The notes under the pieces are model-generated. The model was not told the origin of the DNA. It saw nothing but the letters and a program-made list of their open reading frames with translations, and did no database searches. From contig CAWBZM010000003.1 of assembly GCA_963793205.1 (NCBI GenBank), forward strand, positions 79,840 to 143,839: 64,000 nucleotides of DNA, written 5' to 3'. Below, one piece after another: positions 39,567 through 49,041 of this stretch; position 1 is the first letter of the stretch, and every line of letters begins with the position of its first letter. Source of the stretch: an uncultured Gemmatimonadales bacterium (GTDB lineage: Bacteria; Gemmatimonadota; Gemmatimonadetes; Gemmatimonadales; GWC2-71-9). The translations under genes and the position numbers were made by a program.

Positions 39567-40004
39567 ATGCGCGCCTTCGCCGTTACCGCTGCCCTGCTCT
39601 GCTGCACTGTTGCCCTCCCCGCCCGCGCCCAGGGGACGCCGGGCACCGCCGAGACCGCGGCGGTCCGCAGCGTCGTCGAGCGCTACCTGCATGGCCTCAA
39701 GTTCAATGACACCGTGAGTTTCCACGACGCCTTCCTGCCCGACGCGAAGCTCTATTTCCGCCGACGGGATGGTCAGCTCGGCGCCCTGTCGCAGCATGAC
39801 TGGTATGCCGGGTTCGCCAAGACCGCGGGGCAGGAGGAAGCGGGCGAACTGCGGATCACGGCGCTCGAGGTCACCGGGGACATCGCCTCGGCCAAGGTCG
39901 AGGAGGAGTACGCGAAGGTCCGGTACACCGACTACCTCGCCCTGGTCCGGATCGGGGACCGCTGGCAGATCGTCAACAAGGTGTTCACCGCCGCGCCCCG
40001 ATAG
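39567..40004 (+). CDS. secreted NTF2-fold protein (putative lumazine-binding family)
   Basis: ATG 39567. It has a signal peptide, then VVERYLHGLKFNDTVSFHDAF ... YLALVRIGDRWQIVNKVF. Confidence 0.75.
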   Translation: MRAFAVTAALLCCTVALPARAQGTPGTAETAAVRSVVERYLHGLKFNDTVSFHDAFLPDAKLYFRRRDGQLGALSQHDWYAGFAKTAGQEEAGELRITALEVTGDIASAKVEEEYAKVRYTDYLALVRIGDRWQIVNKVFTAAPR

Positions 40005-40057
40005 GCGGCTCCCCGGCACTGCTTGACGCCGCATCCAGTATACTGGATATTGTTTCC

Positions 40058-40657
40058 ATGTCTTTGGATATGGCGTCCGACCTGACCCACCGCATCGCCG
40101 GTCGCGTGCAGCGGCTGCGCGCCAGCCAGGGACTCTCGCTGGAGGCGCTGGCGGACCGGAGCGGTGTCAGCCGCTCCATGATCTCCCTGATTGAGCGCGG
40201 TGAGACCAGCCCGACCGCCGTCGTCCTCGAACGCCTCGCCACCGGACTCGGCGTGGTCCTGGCCACCCTGTTCGATGCCCCGGATGCGGACCGGGCACCG
40301 GATCCCCTCTCCCGCCGGACCGACCAGGACTCCTGGACTGATCCCGATTCGGGCTACACCCGGCGGAATATTTCTCCCCCGGGGGCCGGGCAGCCGATGC
40401 AAATCGTCGAGGTCCGGTTCCCGCCCGGACGACGGGTGACGTTCGAGCGGCTGACTCCGGGCCCGGTCGCCTGCCAGCAGGTCTGGGTGTTGAGCGGCAC
40501 CCTCGACATCACCCTCGGCCGCACCCGCACCCGCCTCGCTGAGGGAGACTGCCTCGCCATGCAGCTCGATCGGCCGATCACCTTTCACAATCCTTCACGC
40601 CGCACCACCCGATACTGCGTCGTGATCGCGCCGAGCCCGGCAGGGAAGCGGACATGA
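40058..40657 (+). CDS. XRE-family HTH regulator with C-terminal cupin domain
   Basis: The HTH is LRASQGLSLEALADRSGVSRSMISLIERGETSPT. A cupin tail follows. Confidence 0.9.
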   Translation: MSLDMASDLTHRIAGRVQRLRASQGLSLEALADRSGVSRSMISLIERGETSPTAVVLERLATGLGVVLATLFDAPDADRAPDPLSRRTDQDSWTDPDSGYTRRNISPPGAGQPMQIVEVRFPPGRRVTFERLTPGPVACQQVWVLSGTLDITLGRTRTRLAEGDCLAMQLDRPITFHNPSRRTTRYCVVIAPSPAGKRT

Positions 40658-41178
40658 CCACCATCCTCCCGCCCCGGCGCCTTCGCACCGTCACCGAGGC
40701 CCAGATCGCCCAGCTGGCGGAGGTGCTGATCGATGCGGTGGACGGCGGGGCCTCGGTCAGCTTCATGAGCCCCCTGCCCTTCCCACGGGCGGAGGCCTTC
40801 TGGCGGGGAGTGGCGCAGGCGGTCGCGACCGAAGCGGTGGCCCTGCTGGTGGTGGAGGACGACGCAGGCATATGCGGGACGGTACAGCTGGGGTTGGCCC
40901 AGCCCGACAACCAGCCGCACCGGGCGGACCTGTCCAAAATGCTGGTCCATCGCCGCGTGCGGCGACAGGGAGTGGGAGAGGCGCTGATGCGCGCAGCAGA
41001 GGCGACCGCTCGGGAATGCGGGAAGCGGCTGCTGGTTCTGGATACCGCGAGTGATGTGGCGGAGCGGCTCTATGCCCGCACCGGCTGGACCCGAGTCGGC
41101 GTCATCCCGGATTACGCTCTGCTGCCGGACGGGGCGCCGTGCAGTACTACGATCTTCTACCGCACCCTCACGCCGTAA
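40654..41178 (+). CDS. GNAT family N-acetyltransferase
   Basis: ATG overlaps the upstream stop (ATGA). Contains KMLVHRRVRRQGVGEALM. Confidence 0.85.
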   Translation: MTTILPPRRLRTVTEAQIAQLAEVLIDAVDGGASVSFMSPLPFPRAEAFWRGVAQAVATEAVALLVVEDDAGICGTVQLGLAQPDNQPHRADLSKMLVHRRVRRQGVGEALMRAAEATARECGKRLLVLDTASDVAERLYARTGWTRVGVIPDYALLPDGAPCSTTIFYRTLTP

Positions 41179-41192
41179 CCGTCTCACCGCGC

Positions 41193-41323
41193 GACCGCCC
41201 GACCGCCTGACCGCCCGTCCGGCTACCCACGTACCCTCGTACACCCACGCACCCACGTACCCACGCACCCACGCACCCACGCACCCACGTACCCACGTAC
41301 CCACGTACCCCTACCCACCGTCC
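41193..41323. repeat. tandem octamer array: GACCGCCY x3-4 then ACCCACGY x about 10 plus degenerate ends
   Basis: Read directly: gaccgccc gaccgcct gaccgccc gtccggct acccacgt accctcgt (ac) acccacgc acccacgt acccacgc x3 acccacgt x3 accccta cccaccgtccc. It is intergenic. Confidence 0.9.
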
Positions 41324-41392
41324 CTAACACTAAGCAAATAATGAAAACAGCCTGAAGCTCTCCCCGCCTTGACGCCTACTCCCGGCAGGCCA

Positions 41393-44341
41393 ATGTTGAA
41401 GCGTCTTTCATTGGGCCCGCTTAGCACCCATTCACTTTTCGTTCACGATAGCACTTCCCATGGAGCCTCGCGGGGATCCCCCCCGTCGCCCCCGGACGAT
41501 CCCCCGGTCTCCAGACCGGAGGCCGGCAGACTGCCTCACGTCAGCTCAATATCACCACACGGGATCCTTGTGAGCTCTGGCTCCACCGTGCCTTCCCCTC
41601 CCCCGGAGGGAGCCCTGGCTCCTTCCCTGACCGCCGCGGATCCGCGCGCCCTGCAGCTGACATTTACGGTGTCCGGCTATCTGGCGATGGCGGGGATTGT
41701 CGTGGGTCTGGTGGTGCTGCTGGGCGGGTGGGTGATCGGGATTGAATGGATCAAGGGTCTCCTGCCCGGTATGGCCACCATGAAGCCGGCCACCGCCATT
41801 TGCATTGCGCTGGTCGGTGCCGGCCTCTGGTTGGAACGCCGTGACACGGATCGGGCGCACCGCTGGGCAGCAGGCGTGGGGATCCTGTCGATCGCCGTCT
41901 CGCTGCTCACGGTCTCCGCCTATCTTGTCGACGCTGGCGCCCCCCTGCTGGCGGCCAGGCTCATGCCGCCGCCGCAGCGGATGTCCCTGGCGACCTCCGT
42001 CGGGCTCCTGTTGCTGGGCATCGCGGTGGTGTTGTTGCGCTGGGCCCGGTTCCGCACCCGTCCGGCGGACTTCGTCGCGCTCGGGGCGATCCTGGTCGGG
42101 CTGGTCGGTATCGAAGGCTATCTCTTCGGCACCGTCGGACTGTACCGCTTCCTGCCTTACGGCAGCATGGCCCTGCACACCGCGGCCCTGATCTTCCTGC
42201 TCGGCCTCGGCGTGCTCACTGTCCGGCCGGAGAGGGGCGTCCTGGCGCCGTTCGTCAGCCGCTACGATGGCGGGAAAACGGCACGACTGGTGCTGCCCAC
42301 CGTGGTGACAGCCATCCTGCTGGTGGCGTGGCTGCGGCTGCAGGGGGAACGGGCCGGCTGGTACGGCACCGAGGTGGGGCTCGCCATCTTTTCGTCCGCC
42401 AATATCGTCCTGATCACGACCGTCACCTGGATGGCGGCCAGCCGGGTCAACCGGGCCGACCTGGAGCGGCGCGATGCCGAAGTCCGTGCCCTGGCGGATG
42501 TCGAGCGCCTGCGGCTGCTCTCGGCGGTGGTGGAAAGCTCCGATGATGCGATTCTCACGAAAAGCACCGACGGGACGATCCAATCCTGGAATCGTTCCGC
42601 CGAGCTGCTCTATGGCTATCGCCCGGAGGAGGCGATTGGGCAGAACATTGCCCTCATCGTTCCGGCGGACCGTCGGGCCGAACTCGCCGATCTGATCGGG
42701 CGAGTGCAGCGCGGCGAGTCCGTGCACCACCTGGAGACGGTCCGGCAGACCAGGGACGGGCGGCGGATCGACGTGTCCCTCTCCCTCTCCCCGGTGACCC
42801 TCGGGCCGGGTCGCTCGACCGGAATCGCAGCAATCGCCCGAGATATCACCGACCGGCGACGCCAGGCCGAACGGTTGCAGGCGGTGGTGGAGTCCGCACC
42901 CAACGGCATGATGATGGTGACGGAGGACGGTCGGATCGAACTGGTGAACCGGGCCGCCGAGGTGCTCTTCGGCTATCGCCGGAAGGAAATGCTCGGCCAG
43001 ACGGTGGACATGTTGCTGCCGGAGAAGGCCCGTGCCCGCCATCCCGCCTTTCGCGCCGACTTCGGTCGCGACCCGACGCCGCGCGCGATGGGGGCAGGCC
43101 GGGAACTCTTCGCCCGGCGAAAGGACGGGAGCGAGGTACCGGTTGAAATCGGCCTGAACCCGATCGAGATCGATCAGGCGCGTTACGTCCTCGCCTCGAT
43201 TGTTGATGTGAGCGCACGGAAGCTGGCGGATGAACGGACCCGGCTGGTGGTGGAAGCGAGTCCGAGTGGTCTGGTCGTGGTGGACCCCGCGGGCATCATC
43301 ACCATGGTCAACCAGGAGATGGTACGGATGTTCGACTGGCCGCGGGAGCAGCTGGTCGGCCAGCCGATCGACCGTCTGCTGCCCGAGCAGGCGCGCCCCA
43401 GCCACGATGGGCTGCGGCGGGCCTACATGGAGGCGCCTGGCCGACGGGCCATGGGGGTCGGTCGCGAATTGTTCGGCCGCCGGCGGGATGGCACCGAGTT
43501 CCCGGTGGAGATCGGGCTCAATCCGTTGCGGCAGGGAAATGAGGTCGCGGTGCTGGCCGTCGTCACCGACATCACCGAGCGCCGGGCCGCGGAACAGGCC
43601 CTGGCACGGCATCAGCGGGAACTGGAGCGCTCCAACAAGGAGCTGGCCCATTTCGCTTACGTCGCCTCGCATGATCTGCAGGAACCGCTGCGCATGGTGA
43701 GCAGCTATGCCGAGCTCTTCTCGGAGCGCTACCAGTTCACCCTGGACGAGCGAGGGAGCAAGTATCTGGGATACATGGTGGATGGCGCCCGCCGGATGCA
43801 GGCGCTGGTCCGTGACCTGTTGGCCTATGCCCGGGTGGATTCCCAGGGACGGCCACTCGAGGCCACCGGTGTGGCCAGGGTCCTGACCGCCACGCTGCAC
43901 GACCTGTCGGGCGCCATCACGGAGGCGGAGGGCACAATCGAGCATGGCGAGATGCCCACGGTATGGGCCGATCCCGTACAACTGCAGCAGCTGCTGCAGA
44001 ACCTCATTGGCAATGCCGTGAAGTTCCGCAGCGGCATGCCGCCCAGGGTGCGACTCACGGTGGAGCGGCAGGGCCCCATGCTGGCGTTCGCGGTGAGCGA
44101 CAACGGGATCGGCATCGCGCCGGAGTTTGCCGAGCGGGTCTTCGGCATGTTCCAGCGGCTGCATACCCGGGAGGAATTCGCGGGGAGTGGCATCGGGCTT
44201 TCGATTGCTCGAAAGATCGTGGAGCGCCATGAAGGCCGGATCTGGGTCGACACGACGGTCAATGGCGGCACGACGATTCGCTTCACCTTATGGCCCGCCG
44301 ACGGCCCCCGTCCGCCCGGGACCCCTGGAAGTGCACCATGA
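41393..44341 (+). CDS. membrane sensor histidine kinase: multi-TM N-terminal domain, three PAS domains, HisKA, HATPase_c
   Basis: About eight TM helices. The H-box is FAYVASHDLQEPLRMV and the ATPase motifs are NLIGNAVKF, DNGIGI and GSGIGLS. The start is uncertain (ATG 41393, TTG 41369, GTG 41570). Confidence 0.9.
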   Translation: MLKRLSLGPLSTHSLFVHDSTSHGASRGSPPSPPDDPPVSRPEAGRLPHVSSISPHGILVSSGSTVPSPPPEGALAPSLTAADPRALQLTFTVSGYLAMAGIVVGLVVLLGGWVIGIEWIKGLLPGMATMKPATAICIALVGAGLWLERRDTDRAHRWAAGVGILSIAVSLLTVSAYLVDAGAPLLAARLMPPPQRMSLATSVGLLLLGIAVVLLRWARFRTRPADFVALGAILVGLVGIEGYLFGTVGLYRFLPYGSMALHTAALIFLLGLGVLTVRPERGVLAPFVSRYDGGKTARLVLPTVVTAILLVAWLRLQGERAGWYGTEVGLAIFSSANIVLITTVTWMAASRVNRADLERRDAEVRALADVERLRLLSAVVESSDDAILTKSTDGTIQSWNRSAELLYGYRPEEAIGQNIALIVPADRRAELADLIGRVQRGESVHHLETVRQTRDGRRIDVSLSLSPVTLGPGRSTGIAAIARDITDRRRQAERLQAVVESAPNGMMMVTEDGRIELVNRAAEVLFGYRRKEMLGQTVDMLLPEKARARHPAFRADFGRDPTPRAMGAGRELFARRKDGSEVPVEIGLNPIEIDQARYVLASIVDVSARKLADERTRLVVEASPSGLVVVDPAGIITMVNQEMVRMFDWPREQLVGQPIDRLLPEQARPSHDGLRRAYMEAPGRRAMGVGRELFGRRRDGTEFPVEIGLNPLRQGNEVAVLAVVTDITERRAAEQALARHQRELERSNKELAHFAYVASHDLQEPLRMVSSYAELFSERYQFTLDERGSKYLGYMVDGARRMQALVRDLLAYARVDSQGRPLEATGVARVLTATLHDLSGAITEAEGTIEHGEMPTVWADPVQLQQLLQNLIGNAVKFRSGMPPRVRLTVERQGPMLAFAVSDNGIGIAPEFAERVFGMFQRLHTREEFAGSGIGLSIARKIVERHEGRIWVDTTVNGGTTIRFTLWPADGPRPPGTPGSAP

Positions 44342-45507
44342 CGGGGACACCCATCGTCGTCGTCAGCGGGCTGGCCGATGAGAACCTGGCGCTGCATGTC
44401 GTGCAGCTCGGCGCCCAGGATTTCCTCGTCAAGGGAGCGCTGACGGTACCCAGCCTCGGACGCGCGCTGCGGCACGCCCGCGAGCGCAAGCGGACGGAGC
44501 AGCGCCTGATGCAGTTGGCCCACGACGACCAGCTCACCGGCCTGGCCAACCGCACCACGTTTCATGAGCGGATCTCCCAGGCCGCCACACGCGCTCGCCG
44601 GCGAGGCACCCGCTTCGCCGTGATGTACCTCGATCTCGACAAGTTCAAGAACGTCAACGACACCCTGGGGCATGATGCGGGGGACACCCTGCTGTTCGAT
44701 TCGTCACTGAACGGGGACGGGATCGTACAATCCGCCCTCGCCGCCGACGTGAACGTTGCGCTCAAGCGGGGGGAATTCAGCCTGCATTTCCGGCCGCAGG
44801 TCACCATCGACGGGTATCGGCTGGAAGGATTCGAGGGGCTGCTCCGCTGGAACCGGGGGGACGAGGTGATCCCGCCGTCGGTCTTCGTCCCCCTGCTCGA
44901 AGAGGCCGGCGGGATCATTGCGGCCGGTCACTGGGCCATCCGGGAAGGGTGCCGCCGGCTGGCGGACTGGCGCCGGCCCACCGCGGCGGGGATCCGGCTC
45001 GCGATCAACATGTCCCCGACCCAGATCGAAGAGCCCGGGTTGGCCGAAACGATCGCCTCGGTGCTGCAGGAATTCAGTCTGCCGCCCTCCGCCCTGGAAC
45101 TTGAGGTCACCGAACAGGTGATCATGCGGGATACCGTCCGCATCAACCTGGCACTCACGGAGCTCAAGAGACTCGGCGTTCGACTGGCGGTGAAGAGCTT
45201 CGGGACTGGCTTCTCCTCCGCCGCGTTCCTTTCCCGCTTCAAGATCGACTGCCTGAAGATTGCGCGGGTCTTCGTCTCCACCACTCCTGATGATCCCGAA
45301 AGCGCCGGCGTGATCCGGGCCATCGTCGCCCTCGGCTCCTCCCTGAGCATCCGGGTCCTGGCGGACGGCGTGGAAACCTTTGACCAGCTCATGGCGGCCC
45401 AGCGGGCCGGCTGTGTGCTGGCACAGGGCGATCTCTTCGGCCGGCCGATGCCGAACTGGAGCCTGCCCCCCACCTGGGAGCCACATCGTGATGACCACAA
45501 ACCCTAA
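44338..45507 (+). CDS. eroded c-di-GMP protein: C-terminal half of a REC domain, N-terminal half of a GGDEF domain, degenerate EAL domain
   Basis: ATG overlaps the kinase stop (ATGA). The order is [29 protein letters not shown], then DQLTGLANR...[23 protein letters not shown], then directly the EAL start (EFSLHFRPQ). There is no GGDEF motif. The EAL signature reads KSFGTGFSS and LKIA. Confidence 0.85.
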
Positions 45508-45958
45508 TCGGAATCGTCCGTTCGAAATCCTCCTGGTCGAGGACAACCCGGCGGATGTGGATCTCATCCGCGACCGGCTGGAGGTCAGCACGATCCCCAT
45601 CCATCTCTCGGTCGCGACCGACGGCGTGCGGGCCGAAGGCTTTCTGCGTCAGGAGGGGGAATACCACTCCGCTCCCCGACCCGACCTGGTGATGCTCGAT
45701 CTCAACCTGCCCCGCCGGAATGGCTCCGAGGTCCTCGCCAGCATCAAGGCGAGTCCTTCGCTGCGCTCCATCCCCATCGTGGTGTTGACCTCCTCCGATG
45801 CGGAGACGGATATCGTGCGGAGCTATACCGACGGCGCCAACTGCTACCTCACCAAGCCGGTGACCCTGGCCGGCCTGAGTGAGGTGGTCGGCACCGTGGA
45901 GCGCTTCTGGTTCTCCACCGTACGCCTCCCACCCAGCGTCCCCGGGAGCATCGTGTGA
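45491..45958 (+). CDS. single-domain response regulator (CheY/Rcp1-like)
   Basis: ATG 45491. Contains [13 protein letters not shown] ... [13 protein letters not shown] ... IVVLTSS ... CYLTKP. Overlaps the preceding gene by 17 nt. Confidence 0.9.
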
Positions 45959-46103
45959 CCGCGGTCCATGGCCTCAGTCCTACCGTTATCGGCAAACCGT
46001 TCCGCGGCATGCACGGCATCCTCTCCGGCGCCCCCAGCTGCTCCTTCTCGCAGGAGCAGGAGCGGATGGATGACATGTTCGGCGATCAGCCCCGGGAGGG
46101 CTG

Positions 46104-47942
46104 ATGCACGCGGCCGAACCACTCCGGGTGCTCCTGGTCGAGGACAACGCCGCCGATGCCGACCTGGCGCGGGAGCACCTGTGCGACCTGCAGGATGCGC
46201 CGCTCGATCTGGTCCATGTGACGACGCTGCGCGAGGCGGTGGAGCGGCTGCACGGCCCGCTGCCCGACGCCATCATCCTGGACCTCACCCTTCCCGATTG
46301 TGCCGGGCTCGCCACCTATCAGCAGATCCGCCTGCTCTCCCCCGACGTCCCGATCCTGGTGCTGGCTGGTGAGTTGACCGAAACGATGCGGCAGCAGATC
46401 CTGAGCGCCGGGGCAACCGACTGTCTCGGCAAATCCCCCCCACCCTTCGAAATCCTGCATCGCGGTCTCCGGCTCTCGACGGCGCTCCGCCGGGCCGAGG
46501 GCCAGCAGCGGCAGATGGAACGCCTGGTCGGGGCCAGCCCGGATGCCGTCTTCGTGGCGGACGCGGCGGGCGTTGTCCGGTTCGTGAACCAGTCGGCGCT
46601 CGAACTGTTCGGCAAGCGCCGGGAGGATTTTGTCGGGGAGCTGCTCACCTTTGCGGTCGAACCCGGCAAGGTCGCTGAACTCGAGGTCCTGCGGGGAACC
46701 GAGCGGCGTACGGCCGAAATGCGTTCCGTCGATGTGGAGTGGGAGGGCCACGCGGCGGTCATGGTGAACATCCGGGACACCACCGATTCCCAGCGGCTGA
46801 GCGAGCAGTTACTGCAGGCCCAGAAGATGGAGGCGGTGGGACACCTCGCAGGTGGCGTGGCCCACGATTTCAATAACCTGATCACCGTGATCCTGGCCTA
46901 CGGCAGCTCCATCAAGGACACACTGCAGGAGGACGACCCGCGGCGCGAGGACCTGTCCCAGATCATGGCGGCCGCGGATCGGGCCAAGTCGCTGACCCGC
47001 CAGCTACTGGCCTTTGCGCGCCGCCAACCGATCCAGGTGCAGTCGGTACAGTTCGATACACTCGCCGAGGGCATTCAGCAGTTGCTGCGTCGTACCCTGC
47101 CGGAGCACACCACGCTTCACGTCCACTGCGCCCCGGACATCTGGCCGGTGCTGGCCGATCCCGGCCAACTGGAGCAGGTACTGATCAACCTCGCGGTGAA
47201 CGCCAGCGACGCGATGCCGCGCGGCGGCCTGATCACGGTTTCGGTGGAGAATATCGGCCGCACCGAGCACGAGGCGGGCTGGGAGGGCGGTGACGCCATT
47301 CGCGTGCAGATGCGTGACTCCGGCGAGGGCATCCCGGCCGAACATCTGCGTCGGATCTTCGATCCGTTCTTCACCACCAAGGCGCCCGGCAAGGGTACCG
47401 GGCTCGGGCTGGCCACCTGCTACGGCATCGTGCAGCAGGCCGGTGGTACCATCACCGTGGCGAGCACCCTGGGTGAGGGCACCACCTTCACCATCATGCT
47501 CCCCCGGGCGGTCGGGGAGGCGCCGCCACGGCAGGAGCCGCGCCGGGCGTTGATGGAACGACTGGATGGACACGAAACGATCGTGCTGGTGGAAGATGAC
47601 GACAGCCTGCGGCGATCGATCGTCCGCGTGCTGCGCCGCTACGGGTACGCCGTCCTCACCGCGACCAACGGCGAAGAGGGCCAGCACCTGATCGAGGGAT
47701 ACGACGGTGTCGTCGACCTGATCATCACCGATCTGATCATGCCCAAGATGGGAGGCGGTGCCCTGGTCGATTTCCTCCGGCGCACTCGGCCCTCGGCCCG
47801 GGTGCTCTGCATGACCGGGTATGCCGCGCGCCCCGGCGATCCGACGACCGGGCTGCGGGAGGGCGTCGAAGTCCTCTATAAGCCGTTCGAGCCCACGGAA
47901 CTGCTACGGCGCATCCGCGAAATGCTCACGCCGGTCGGCTGA
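46104..47942 (+). CDS. hybrid sensor histidine kinase: REC-PAS-HisKA-HATPase_c-REC
   Basis: GGGAGGG lies before ATG 46104. Motifs are [10 protein letters not shown] ... IILDLTLPD, the H-box [15 protein letters not shown], and [11 protein letters not shown]. The C-terminal REC contains [13 protein letters not shown]. Confidence 0.9.
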
Positions 47943-47992
47943 CGCCCCGCCGGCGGTCCCGCTTGTCCCATCGCCGGTCCCCCGGCACCTTT

Positions 47993-48017
47993 CCCCCCCG
48001 TTAGTCCCGCCCCCCCC
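47993..48017. repeat. two homopolymeric C tracts (C7 at 47993-47999, C8 at 48010-48017) in an intergenic region
   Basis: Read directly: tttcccccccgttagtcccgcccccccctcttgcacg. It lies 23-47 nt upstream of ATG 48040. Confidence 0.85.
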
Positions 48018-48039
48018 TCTTGCACGACCTGAGGAAGCC

Positions 48040-48369
48040 ATGCGTCTGGCCGAGATTCCCTTTGGTACCACTGCCTGGTCCGAGATGCCGCCCACCGAGC
48101 ATCCCGGGGAGTGCGGCCACGCCACGTGGCGCACCCGCGAGTTCGGCGGGGTCCGCGTCCGCATGGTGGAGTATTCGCCGGGCTATCGCGCCAACCACTG
48201 GTGTACCAAAGGACATATCCTGCTGTGCCTCGACGGCGAGTTGCACACCGAGCTGGCGGATGGGCGACAGTTCGTCCTGACTCCCGGGACCAGCTATCAG
48301 GTGGCCGATGACGCCGAGCCCCATCGATCCTCGACCAGCACCGGCGCACGCCTGTTTATCGTGGACTGA
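48040..48369 (+). CDS. cupin fold protein (DHCW-motif type)
   Basis: GAGGAAG lies before ATG 48040. Contains VRMVEYSPGYRANHWCTKGHILLCLDGEL. Confidence 0.8.
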   Translation: MRLAEIPFGTTAWSEMPPTEHPGECGHATWRTREFGGVRVRMVEYSPGYRANHWCTKGHILLCLDGELHTELADGRQFVLTPGTSYQVADDAEPHRSSTSTGARLFIVD

Positions 48370-48375
48370 GGATCC

Positions 48376-49041
48376 ATGTCTGCCGTTCTCTCACTCACGC
48401 GCCGGGAGCCCCCCCTGCCCCGCGCCCTTTCCCGGCAGGCGCTGCACCGGGGCGCGCGCATCCTCGCGCGCCGGCATCCCGCCTTTGCGAGACTCCTTCA
48501 CGAGCATGGCCCACCACCCGTCTGGGGGCGCCGACCCGGTTTCGCCACCCTGGTGCGGATCATCCTCGAGCAACAGGTCTCGCTGGCGGCGGCACGCACG
48601 ATGTATCGCAGGGTGGAACTGGCGCTGGGAGGGATGACACCGGTAACGGTGATGGGAGCGGGTGGAACGGGGCTGCGTCAGCTGGGCCTGACGCGACAGA
48701 AGTCGGGCTATCTCACCGCGTTGGCGGGCGCGCTGCAGGGTGGAGCGCTTGACCTGACGGCGGTGGCGCGGGCCCCGGATGCGATCGGCCGGCAGGCGCT
48801 GCTGGCGCTGCCGGGCGTGGGGCCGTGGACGGTCGACATCTACTATCTGATGGCCCTGCGCCGGCCGGATATCTGGCCGCAGGGTGACCTCGCCCTGGCA
48901 AGCGCGATGCACCGGGTGTTCCGTCTGCCCGCCAGACCGGACGCCGCCACCCAGCAGGCGCTCGCCAGCCGGTGGAGTCCGTGGCGCTCGGTGGCGGCGC
49001 GGATGTTGTGGCAATCCTACCTCGCGACCCCGCGATCCTGA
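48376..49041 (+). CDS. DNA-3-methyladenine glycosylase II-like (HhH-GPD, AlkA family)
   Basis: Contains LVRIILEQQVSLAAART ... LPGVGPWTVDIYYLMAL..PDIWPQGDLAL. Confidence 0.85.
   Translation: MSAVLSLTRREPPLPRALSRQALHRGARILARRHPAFARLLHEHGPPPVWGRRPGFATLVRIILEQQVSLAAARTMYRRVELALGGMTPVTVMGAGGTGLRQLGLTRQKSGYLTALAGALQGGALDLTAVARAPDAIGRQALLALPGVGPWTVDIYYLMALRRPDIWPQGDLALASAMHRVFRLPARPDAATQQALASRWSPWRSVAARMLWQSYLATPRS

Follow-up and report, generated by a model that had tools for sequence, protein, structure and literature searches.

A probable frame-preserving remnant of a REC-REC-GGDEF-EAL gene in an eroded KaiBC-linked operon of an uncultured Gemmatimonadales bacterium

Background

Why does a gene that has lost most of two signalling domains still read open from its start to its stop codon, and does its product retain a function of its own? 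This question is raised by a gene at positions 44338..45507 (+ strand) of a 64,000-nucleotide (nt) stretch of DNA from an uncultured Gemmatimonadales bacterium (GenBank assembly GCA_963793205.1, contig CAWBZM010000003.1, positions 79,840 to 143,839), which is referred to here, as a whole, as the window. The gene encodes a protein of 389 amino acids (aa; database copy P0001) consisting of a fragment of a second receiver (REC2) domain, a fragment of a GGDEF domain and a degenerate EAL domain. A first-pass annotation had proposed that two in-frame deletions produced an enzymatically dead scaffold or sensor, which is retained under translational coupling to the kinase gene upstream. The comparison with full-length relatives presented here points to a frame-preserving, lineage-specific remnant of a Gemmatimonadales REC-REC-GGDEF-EAL protein whose EAL domain was already degenerate, and thus to operon erosion and not to a new system. 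We put the probability at roughly 55% that the gene is a signalling-dead remnant, which is kept open by translational coupling and by the recency of its deletions and which has at most a weakened form of the ancestral role of the EAL domain.

Orthologues of the truncated gene

The first-pass annotation had advised looking for full-length versions at orthologous loci, and such versions exist. Ten orthologues from Gemmatimonadales (P0122-P0131; 703-706 aa, 61-82% identity), all of them full-length REC-REC-GGDEF-EAL proteins, were retrieved with the full-length protein of locus L006 as query; L006 belongs to a Gemmatimonadales metagenome-assembled genome (MAG) found by a scan of species-representative genomes. 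A homology search with the truncated protein as query missed all of these true orthologues and returned the protein itself as a singleton (P0001), a relative with 64% identity cut by a contig end (P0002) and generic REC-GGDEF-EAL proteins with at most 47% identity, and a scan of metagenomes gave distant relatives only. Orthology is supported by the sequences themselves and by a shared gene order, with kinase, REC and hybrid kinase genes as common neighbours, and a neighbour-joining tree places the window protein as sister to P0123 (locus L166), with L006 next. The window copy is the sole short member of the orthologue group, falling short of the full four-domain architecture of about 705 aa.

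Breakpoints were mapped at the DNA and codon level against the orthologues. In blastn comparisons, L006 and L166 align with the window in four collinear blocks separated by three gaps, two of which lie within the truncated gene. Deletion 1 (junction 44343..44344, + strand) removed codons 3-216 of the 705-aa orthologue (214 codons, 642 nt), which encode the whole of REC1 and the portion of REC2 ahead of beta4, with both phospho-acceptor Asp sites; the orthologues start M-x-x-x-D-P-I-H-R-I-L-Y, and their REC2 beta4 reads P-S-T-P-I-L-V-V-S-G. Deletion 2 (junction 44694..44695, + strand) removed codons 334-435 (102 codons, 306 nt) with the RxxD motif, the GGDEF loop and the rest of the GGDEF domain to its end, and fuses GDTLL straight to FDSSLNGD. 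The sum of the lengths closes (705-214-102 = 389). The two in-frame deletions of the first-pass annotation are thus seen directly against full-length orthologues, its estimate of about 100 missing GGDEF residues being 102 exactly, and on the strength of these alignments both are judged to be real and specific to the window lineage. A direct GCTCC repeat is present on either side of deletion 1 in L006 and absent in L166, and no convincing microhomology flanks deletion 2.

Domain content and catalytic residues

Profile searches, which had been recommended for mapping the domain boundaries, recover parts of a REC and of a GGDEF domain besides a full EAL domain. The receiver remnant (44347..44433, + strand; residues 4-32) comprises beta4-alpha4-beta5 of REC2 according to Pfam, the secondary structure of an AlphaFold2 (AF2) model and the orthologue alignment, just as had been read from the sequence, and alpha5 and a linker helix run on from there to about residue 60. 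On these residues the Response_reg profile matches only in its positions 71-99 of 111 (E = 0.005, 17.4 bits versus a gathering cut-off of 30.2). This weak match is not due to chance, because the region 44347-44694 shares 85% identity over 116 aa with the part of the L006 orthologue that runs from REC2 into GGDEF (tblastn E = 9e-48). With an incomplete fold and neither an acidic pocket nor a phospho-acceptor Asp, the remnant does not qualify as a receiver domain; every phospho-acceptor element is gone, and the truncated protein should thus be unable to accept a phosphoryl group.

The GGDEF remnant (44518..44694, + strand) covers profile positions 1-60 of 161 on residues 61-120 (E = 3e-19). Homology to GGDEF domains stops at codon 119 (nt 44694), the last residues being GHDAGDTLL, and neither the inhibitory RxxD site nor the GGDEF loop is left. 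An incomplete domain with neither motif is not a diguanylate cyclase, and with the catalytic elements of the cyclase gone the protein is predicted to be incapable of making cyclic di-GMP (c-di-GMP). The EAL domain (44746..45447, + strand; from Pfam, the alignment with RocR and AF2), in contrast, is complete: the PF00563 profile matches in positions 3-236 of 236 on residues 137-370 (E = 4e-58, 197 bits versus a cut-off of 31.3).

An active EAL domain requires all of the seven residues E175, N233, E265, E268, D295, K316 and E352 (RocR numbering), and Q161, R179, D296 and D318 serve in the recognition of c-di-GMP (PMC2952852). We transferred this numbering by alignment with 3sy8, which gives a constant offset of 9. 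In the truncated protein, D295 corresponds to K286 and E352 to D343, and the other five catalytic residues are kept. The codons AAG AGC (45193..45198, + strand), encoding K286 and S287, replace the metal-binding DD of DDFGTGYSS, so that the motif reads K286 S287 FGTGFSS; further downstream are LK307 I A309 and D343 GVE, while EVTE, the Asn, the Lys and QG are kept, all in agreement with the motif readings made earlier. Only one of the four recognition residues remains (R179 = R170), the others being substituted (Q161 = R152, D296 = S287, D318 = A309). Three additional departures, which the first-pass annotation had not noticed, are YQP to FRP (at the Q161 position), EAL to EGL and QGY to QGD. 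By the published residue criteria the truncated protein should therefore not be able to hydrolyse c-di-GMP, and with no catalytic element of the cyclase left the earlier description of the product as enzymatically dead appears to be accurate.

It might be argued that the EAL domain is still an active phosphodiesterase (PDE), which the deletions rendered constitutive and unregulated: E175, N233, E265, E268 and K316 are in place, the change E352D is conservative, and the domain is closest, in sequence and in predicted fold, to those of active PDEs (38-44% identity to MorA, BifA, MucR and PdeA versus 21-24% to FimX). However, D295, the residue bridging the metal ions, is a lysine, D296 and D318 are lost as well, and the published rule demands all seven catalytic residues (PMC2952852). 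Moreover, the ten orthologues have the same degenerate site, and replacement of E265 as well (by Q, L or A) is tolerated among them. We thus consider an active PDE very unlikely.

All ten full-length orthologues show K[G/S]FGTG combined with an intact RxxD motif and GGDEF domain. The degeneracy of the EAL domain, common to these ten proteins with intact GGDEF and inhibitory sites, is ancestral and not a product of the truncation. Across the family the active site degenerates stepwise, in three tiers that run from the distant members to the close orthologues and differ in the residues at the DD motif, the KxD motif and E352. The ten close orthologues carry K[GS], Kx[AS] and D (E in two), a group of 692-aa proteins (e.g. 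P0132-P0136; 47-50% identity to the window protein) carries DG, KxA and D, and distant members (P0140-P0145; 41-47% identity) carry DD, KxD and E; RxxD and GGDEF are present in all of the first tier and in nearly every member of the other two (P0122-P0145). One contig of 111,124 bp encodes both a 704-aa and a 692-aa version, which indicates that these two tiers are paralogous. Within the degenerate groups Q161, E175, R179, N233, E268, K316 and Q372 are invariant and E265 drifts to Q, L or A, which suggests that the EAL domain of this family retains a metal-independent site for a ligand or a partner. Q161 is kept by the full-length orthologues, and its replacement by Arg, the change of EAL to EGL and that of the QGY aromatic residue to Asp are found only in the window protein.

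The 705-aa protein of L006 contains two canonical receivers, a complete GGDEF domain (Pfam positions 1-161 of 161; RDYD...RLGGDEF) and the EAL domain. As deduced from this domain content, the ancestral protein would have been a diguanylate cyclase controlled by phosphorylation, whose EAL domain was no longer catalytic.

A KaiBC operon with a third deletion

The full-length gene is part of a conserved operon of seven genes, which encode a PAS kinase, the REC-REC-GGDEF-EAL protein with its degenerate EAL domain, a single-domain REC protein, a protein termed REC27x, KaiB, KaiC and a hybrid kinase. It was found in Gemmatimonadales MAGs and metagenomes at loci L006 (3504-12494), L166 (612-8670) and L167/L168 (7190-17099), and in part at L001 (1-3899), whose contig is cut at both ends. 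REC27x (277 aa in L006) has a receiver-like N-terminus and a C-terminus of about 150 aa without a Pfam match. Its gene occupies the position held by kaiA in cyanobacteria; REC27x was considered as a KaiA candidate for this reason and rejected, as Pfam detects no KaiA domain in it. Two independent metagenome contigs of the 64% relative (L001 1-30 and L002 1-35) have ends within 5 nt of each other, in a run of 7-8 G in the last GGDEF helix about 30 nt upstream of the equivalent of the deletion-2 junction; these shared ends probably represent an assembly break caused by poly-G or by strain variation.

The third gap in the alignment corresponds to the loss of REC27x, kaiB and most of kaiC (deletion 3, approximately 2.5 kb): the distance from the stop codon of the REC gene (45958) to the start of the hybrid kinase gene (46104) is 145 nt in the window versus about 2.7 kb in the orthologues. 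The scar is itself an open frame of 49 codons (45955..46104, + strand), whose GTG overlaps the REC stop codon and whose TGA overlaps the ATG of the next kinase gene, so that both a GTGA overlap (as in L006) and a TGATG overlap are kept. Positions 45988-46098 of this scar represent the last ~41 kaiC codons, with 63% identity to residues 472-512 of L006 KaiC (E = 2e-10). There is no other kaiB or kaiC and no second full-length paralogue of the truncated gene within the 64-kb window.

Could the missing segments be assembly or sequencing artefacts, the true gene being full length? The protein is a singleton known from one contig, and an assembly might in principle merge REC1 with REC2, since the two are paralogous repeats. 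The two ends of deletion 1 are not equivalent, however, as one lies before beta1 of REC1 and the other before beta4 of REC2, which argues against a repeat collapse; the sequence affected by deletion 2 is unique, the junctions of all three deletions are clean and exact to the codon, and the gene is carried on a contig of 495 kb. An artefact is hardly credible under these circumstances.

The third deletion and the KaiBC context go beyond what the first-pass annotation had noticed, and they make an operon in the course of being dismantled a strong alternative to a retained scaffold or sensor. We infer that the locus is a dismantled KaiBC-linked phosphorelay with a diguanylate cyclase as its output.

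Possible translational coupling and neighbouring genes

The truncated gene starts with ATG at 44338 and ends with TAA at 45505-45507, and its start is shared with the stop codon of the upstream kinase gene (41369..44341, + strand; TGA at 44339-44341) in an ATGA overlap, as had been noted before. A second in-frame ATG exists at 44290; the orthologues and the 389-aa P0001 start at the ATGA instead. We also considered whether the missing N-terminus of the receiver is hidden in another frame under the 3' end of the kinase gene and rejected this, as neither the other frames of 44127-44381 nor the extension from ATG-44290 shows receiver similarity. The corresponding junction is ATGA in L006, an 8-nt overlap in L166 and a 12-nt gap in L167; the overlap is in part ancestral. 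Deletion 1 starts at codon 3, inside the gene, and thus did not create this junction.

Downstream, an intact single-domain response regulator gene (45491..45958, + strand) shares its first 17 nt with the end of the truncated gene, and the scar of deletion 3 leads on to the last gene of the conserved operon, an intact hybrid histidine kinase gene with REC-PAS-HisKA-HATPase-REC architecture (46104..47942, + strand). A scan of 41000-48400 revealed neither a sigma-70-like promoter nor a terminator at the gene junctions; three terminator-like matches in this region are all intragenic, and their number equals the expectation from shuffled sequence.

We propose that the frame was kept open chiefly by the place of the gene in a series of overlapping genes that are joined by translational coupling, and perhaps also by the recency of the deletions; a need for the hybrid protein itself would not be required to explain the open frame. 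Three deletions preserved both the frame and the overlaps of start and stop codons, one of them leaving a useless product, and selection for expression of the downstream genes via coupling would be the simplest common cause. Translational coupling, which had been suggested from the ATGA overlap, thus appears plausible as the reason for the preserved frame and is strengthened by the third frame-preserving scar.

The upstream gene encodes a sensor histidine kinase of 990 codons (start codon uncertain) with a multi-transmembrane N-terminus, three PAS domains, HisKA and HATPase_c. Orthology with the kinases of L006, L166 and L167 covers its C-terminal part, and its N-terminus is variable, the protein having 990 aa here (with a multi-transmembrane region of ~370 aa) versus 636, 813 and 932 aa elsewhere. 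Upstream of the operon, translations suggest an XRE/cupin-like regulator (40058-40657) and a GNAT-like open reading frame (ORF; 40654-41178) overlapping by 4 nt. This flank is unlike those in L006 and L167, which indicates that the operon resides in a different neighbourhood here. Antisense and off-frame ORFs of up to 892 aa lie over the real genes (41552-44230 on the - strand and many others in 40000-49000). Since long spurious ORFs are expected in very GC-rich DNA, an open frame alone is weak coding evidence in this region.

Selection on the truncated gene

Rates of nonsynonymous (dN) and synonymous (dS) change between the window and L006 were estimated by the method of Nei and Gojobori. Among the genes of the operon, dN is lowest in the truncated one (0.158 versus 0.42 for the kinase, 0.25 for the REC and 0.23 for the hybrid kinase gene), with an overall dN/dS of 0.18. 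Three-taxon estimates for the individual branches, which are rough because dS is near saturation, gave a dN/dS for the truncated gene of 0.21 on the window branch and 0.08 on the sister branch, and the respective values are 0.37 and 0.29 for the REC, 0.39 and 0.29 for the hybrid kinase and 0.35 and 0.23 for the kinase gene, so that the ratio between window and sister is only 1.3-1.5 fold in the neighbouring genes. These values point to mostly purifying selection along the window branch, with a modest extra relaxation in the truncated gene; full neutrality, if any, would be limited to approximately the last 10% of the branch. In addition, the changes derived in the window include Q19L, Q152R, V196A, L219I, L262I and A316T, all at sites that are invariant or nearly so in 15 relatives, plus Y365D; none of the derived changes of the sister P0123 falls at such sites.

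In relative rate tests of the neighbouring genes against the sister, with P0122/P0124 as outgroups, the window lineage has accumulated more changes than the sister in the kinase gene (112:66, p = 0.0007), but not in the REC (18:28, p = 0.18) or hybrid kinase gene (20:20, p = 1.0). The faster change of the kinase might reflect the loss of its receiver partner or a poor alignment of the PAS region.

A number of observations weigh against a signalling-dead remnant. The ORF is unbroken for 389 codons, a Shine-Dalgarno-like GGAAG is located 6 nt before its ATG, and the classical criteria for a pseudogene (frameshift, premature stop, lost start) do not apply, as the frame runs uninterrupted from the ATG of the ancestor into the region of its stop codon. 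The GGDEF remnant, which can have no cyclase function, is the best conserved part of the gene (90% amino acid identity over 71 codons, dN/dS 0.086 versus L006), and the dN/dS on the window branch is still far below 1. Relative rate tests do not show a significant acceleration, neither for the EAL domain versus L006 with L001 as outgroup (25:17, p = 0.28), nor for the remnant versus L006 with 14 distant outgroups (8:6), nor for the whole gene versus the sister P0123 with P0122/P0124 as outgroups (31:17, p = 0.059); the last excess is no different from that of the pooled neighbouring genes (Fisher p = 0.34). The rate data thus fit continued selection equally well as a recent truncation. Furthermore, three in-frame events out of three are expected by chance in about 1 of 27 cases, which is only suggestive, and the first ~10 codons of the scar match the start of REC27x only weakly.

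These observations have to be set against a functional but enzymatically dead c-di-GMP receptor or scaffold, i.e. a degenerate EAL domain that stands alone apart from helices appended at its N-terminus and that is selected for its own activity. Such a receptor would account for the dN/dS of 0.21 and the high conservation of the remnant region, and deletions 1 and 2 are both in frame. The pocket residues Q161, E175, R179, N233, E268, K316 and Q372 were kept in the ten close orthologues and in nearly all distant ones despite the loss of metal ligands, and LapD likewise has a lysine in place of a metal-ligand residue in its KVL motif (PMC3032553). The EAL fold is, moreover, predicted with high confidence: the AF2 model, built with an alignment of 71 sequences, has a mean predicted local distance difference test (pLDDT) score of 87.8 with a confident EAL barrel, and it superimposes on known EAL structures with a template modelling score of ~0.9 and a root mean square deviation of 1.4-1.9 A.

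Residues 101-130 at the deletion-2 junction, however, reach a pLDDT of only 53-63, partial REC and GGDEF folds are unlikely to be stable, and the confidently modelled remnant helices probably reflect the full-length homologues in the alignment and not a stable new fold. It is the window copy alone that lost Q161 (to Arg) and the QGY aromatic residue (to Asp), both invariant in 15 of 15 relatives, and one in four published c-di-GMP recognition residues is left. The retrieved homologues include no other protein built in this way, the cluster of P0001 being a singleton. Finally, deletion 3 also preserved the frame with a non-functional product, so that an open frame at this locus does not imply a useful protein. 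Of the FimX/LapD-type receptor proposed by the first-pass annotation, the degenerate catalytic site thus stands, and the low identity to FimX (21-24%) and the loss of three of four recognition residues speak against the rest. We regard a receptor or scaffold selected for its own activity as possible, though rather unlikely. A combined scenario, in which selection for coupling and not for the proteins acts as a filter that lets the operon erode only via frame-preserving deletions, and in which the truncated protein took on a new use as a non-catalytic EAL adaptor of its own once KaiBC was lost, appears doubtful to us, although all three deletions fit such a filter.

In the signalling-dead remnant that we favour, deletion 1 (214 codons) stripped the protein of both receiver phospho-acceptor sites, deletion 2 (102 codons) of the cyclase active site together with its inhibitory site, and deletion 3 (~2.5 kb) the operon of REC27x, kaiB and most of kaiC. 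If the protein still does anything, it would be what the EAL domain did in the ancestor without catalysis, i.e. binding of a ligand or a partner, and this role looks weakened by Q161R and the change of QGY to QGD. The order of events is speculative, but a cyclase freed from its receivers or from Kai control may have been harmful, and removal of the GGDEF core may then have been favoured.

Likeness to known systems

The closest counterparts of the truncated gene are its orthologues P0122-P0131 (L006, L166, L167 and L168), which occupy the same position between a PAS kinase and a single-domain REC gene and share the degenerate EAL motifs K[GS]FGTGF, LK[IV][AS]R and DGVE (EGVE in two). In contrast to these, the window protein has no phospho-acceptor Asp, no RxxD and no GGDEF motif, and its operon lacks REC27x, kaiB and kaiC. 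The ancestral protein has the same front end as REC-REC-GGDEF cyclases of the PleD type, with RxxD five residues upstream of GGDEF; unlike PleD it had an added degenerate EAL domain. Only beta4 to alpha5 of REC2 and the initial third of GGDEF are retained in the window protein, which is thus no enzyme of the PleD kind.

As in LapD and FimX, an EAL fold has lost metal ligands. LapD has KVL in place of EAL, with a lysine replacing a metal-coordinating acidic residue, and the arginine of its EALxR motif is central to c-di-GMP binding (PMC3032553); this arginine is kept in the window (R170). Unlike LapD and FimX, however, the window protein has no HAMP, PAS or intact GGDEF partner domain, and three of its four recognition residues are substituted.

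Natural truncation alleles of c-di-GMP genes have been described in E. coli, where YcgG/PdeG occurs without its CSS domain and YciR is cut after GGDEF (PMC10333796). There, as in the window, deletions in a multidomain gene removed domains and left a shorter ORF, but the E. coli alleles keep a whole active catalytic domain, whereas the two internal deletions of the window gene cut through domains and leave a dead one. A precedent for a GGDEF-EAL protein tied to the Kai system is KidA, a PAS-GGDEF-EAL protein that binds KaiB in Synechococcus (PMC9478674), and the ancestral operon encodes a GGDEF-EAL protein beside kaiB and kaiC. In contrast to the ancestral protein, KidA has PAS inputs and conserved catalytic residues and is encoded outside a kaiBC operon, and the window locus has lost kaiB and kaiC.

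Conclusions

Degenerate EAL domains and truncated c-di-GMP genes have thus been documented before, and the window gene itself is so far unique. It illustrates that orthologues have to be compared before the partial domains of an unbroken ORF can be dated and explained. The intact operon in the relatives is the more interesting object, of which the window holds only the wreck: conserved among Gemmatimonadales, it represents a possible output from a clock to c-di-GMP outside the cyanobacteria. The genome from which the window derives would in turn be a natural knockout of the KaiBC module, and a test case for translational coupling as a constraint on the decay of operons.

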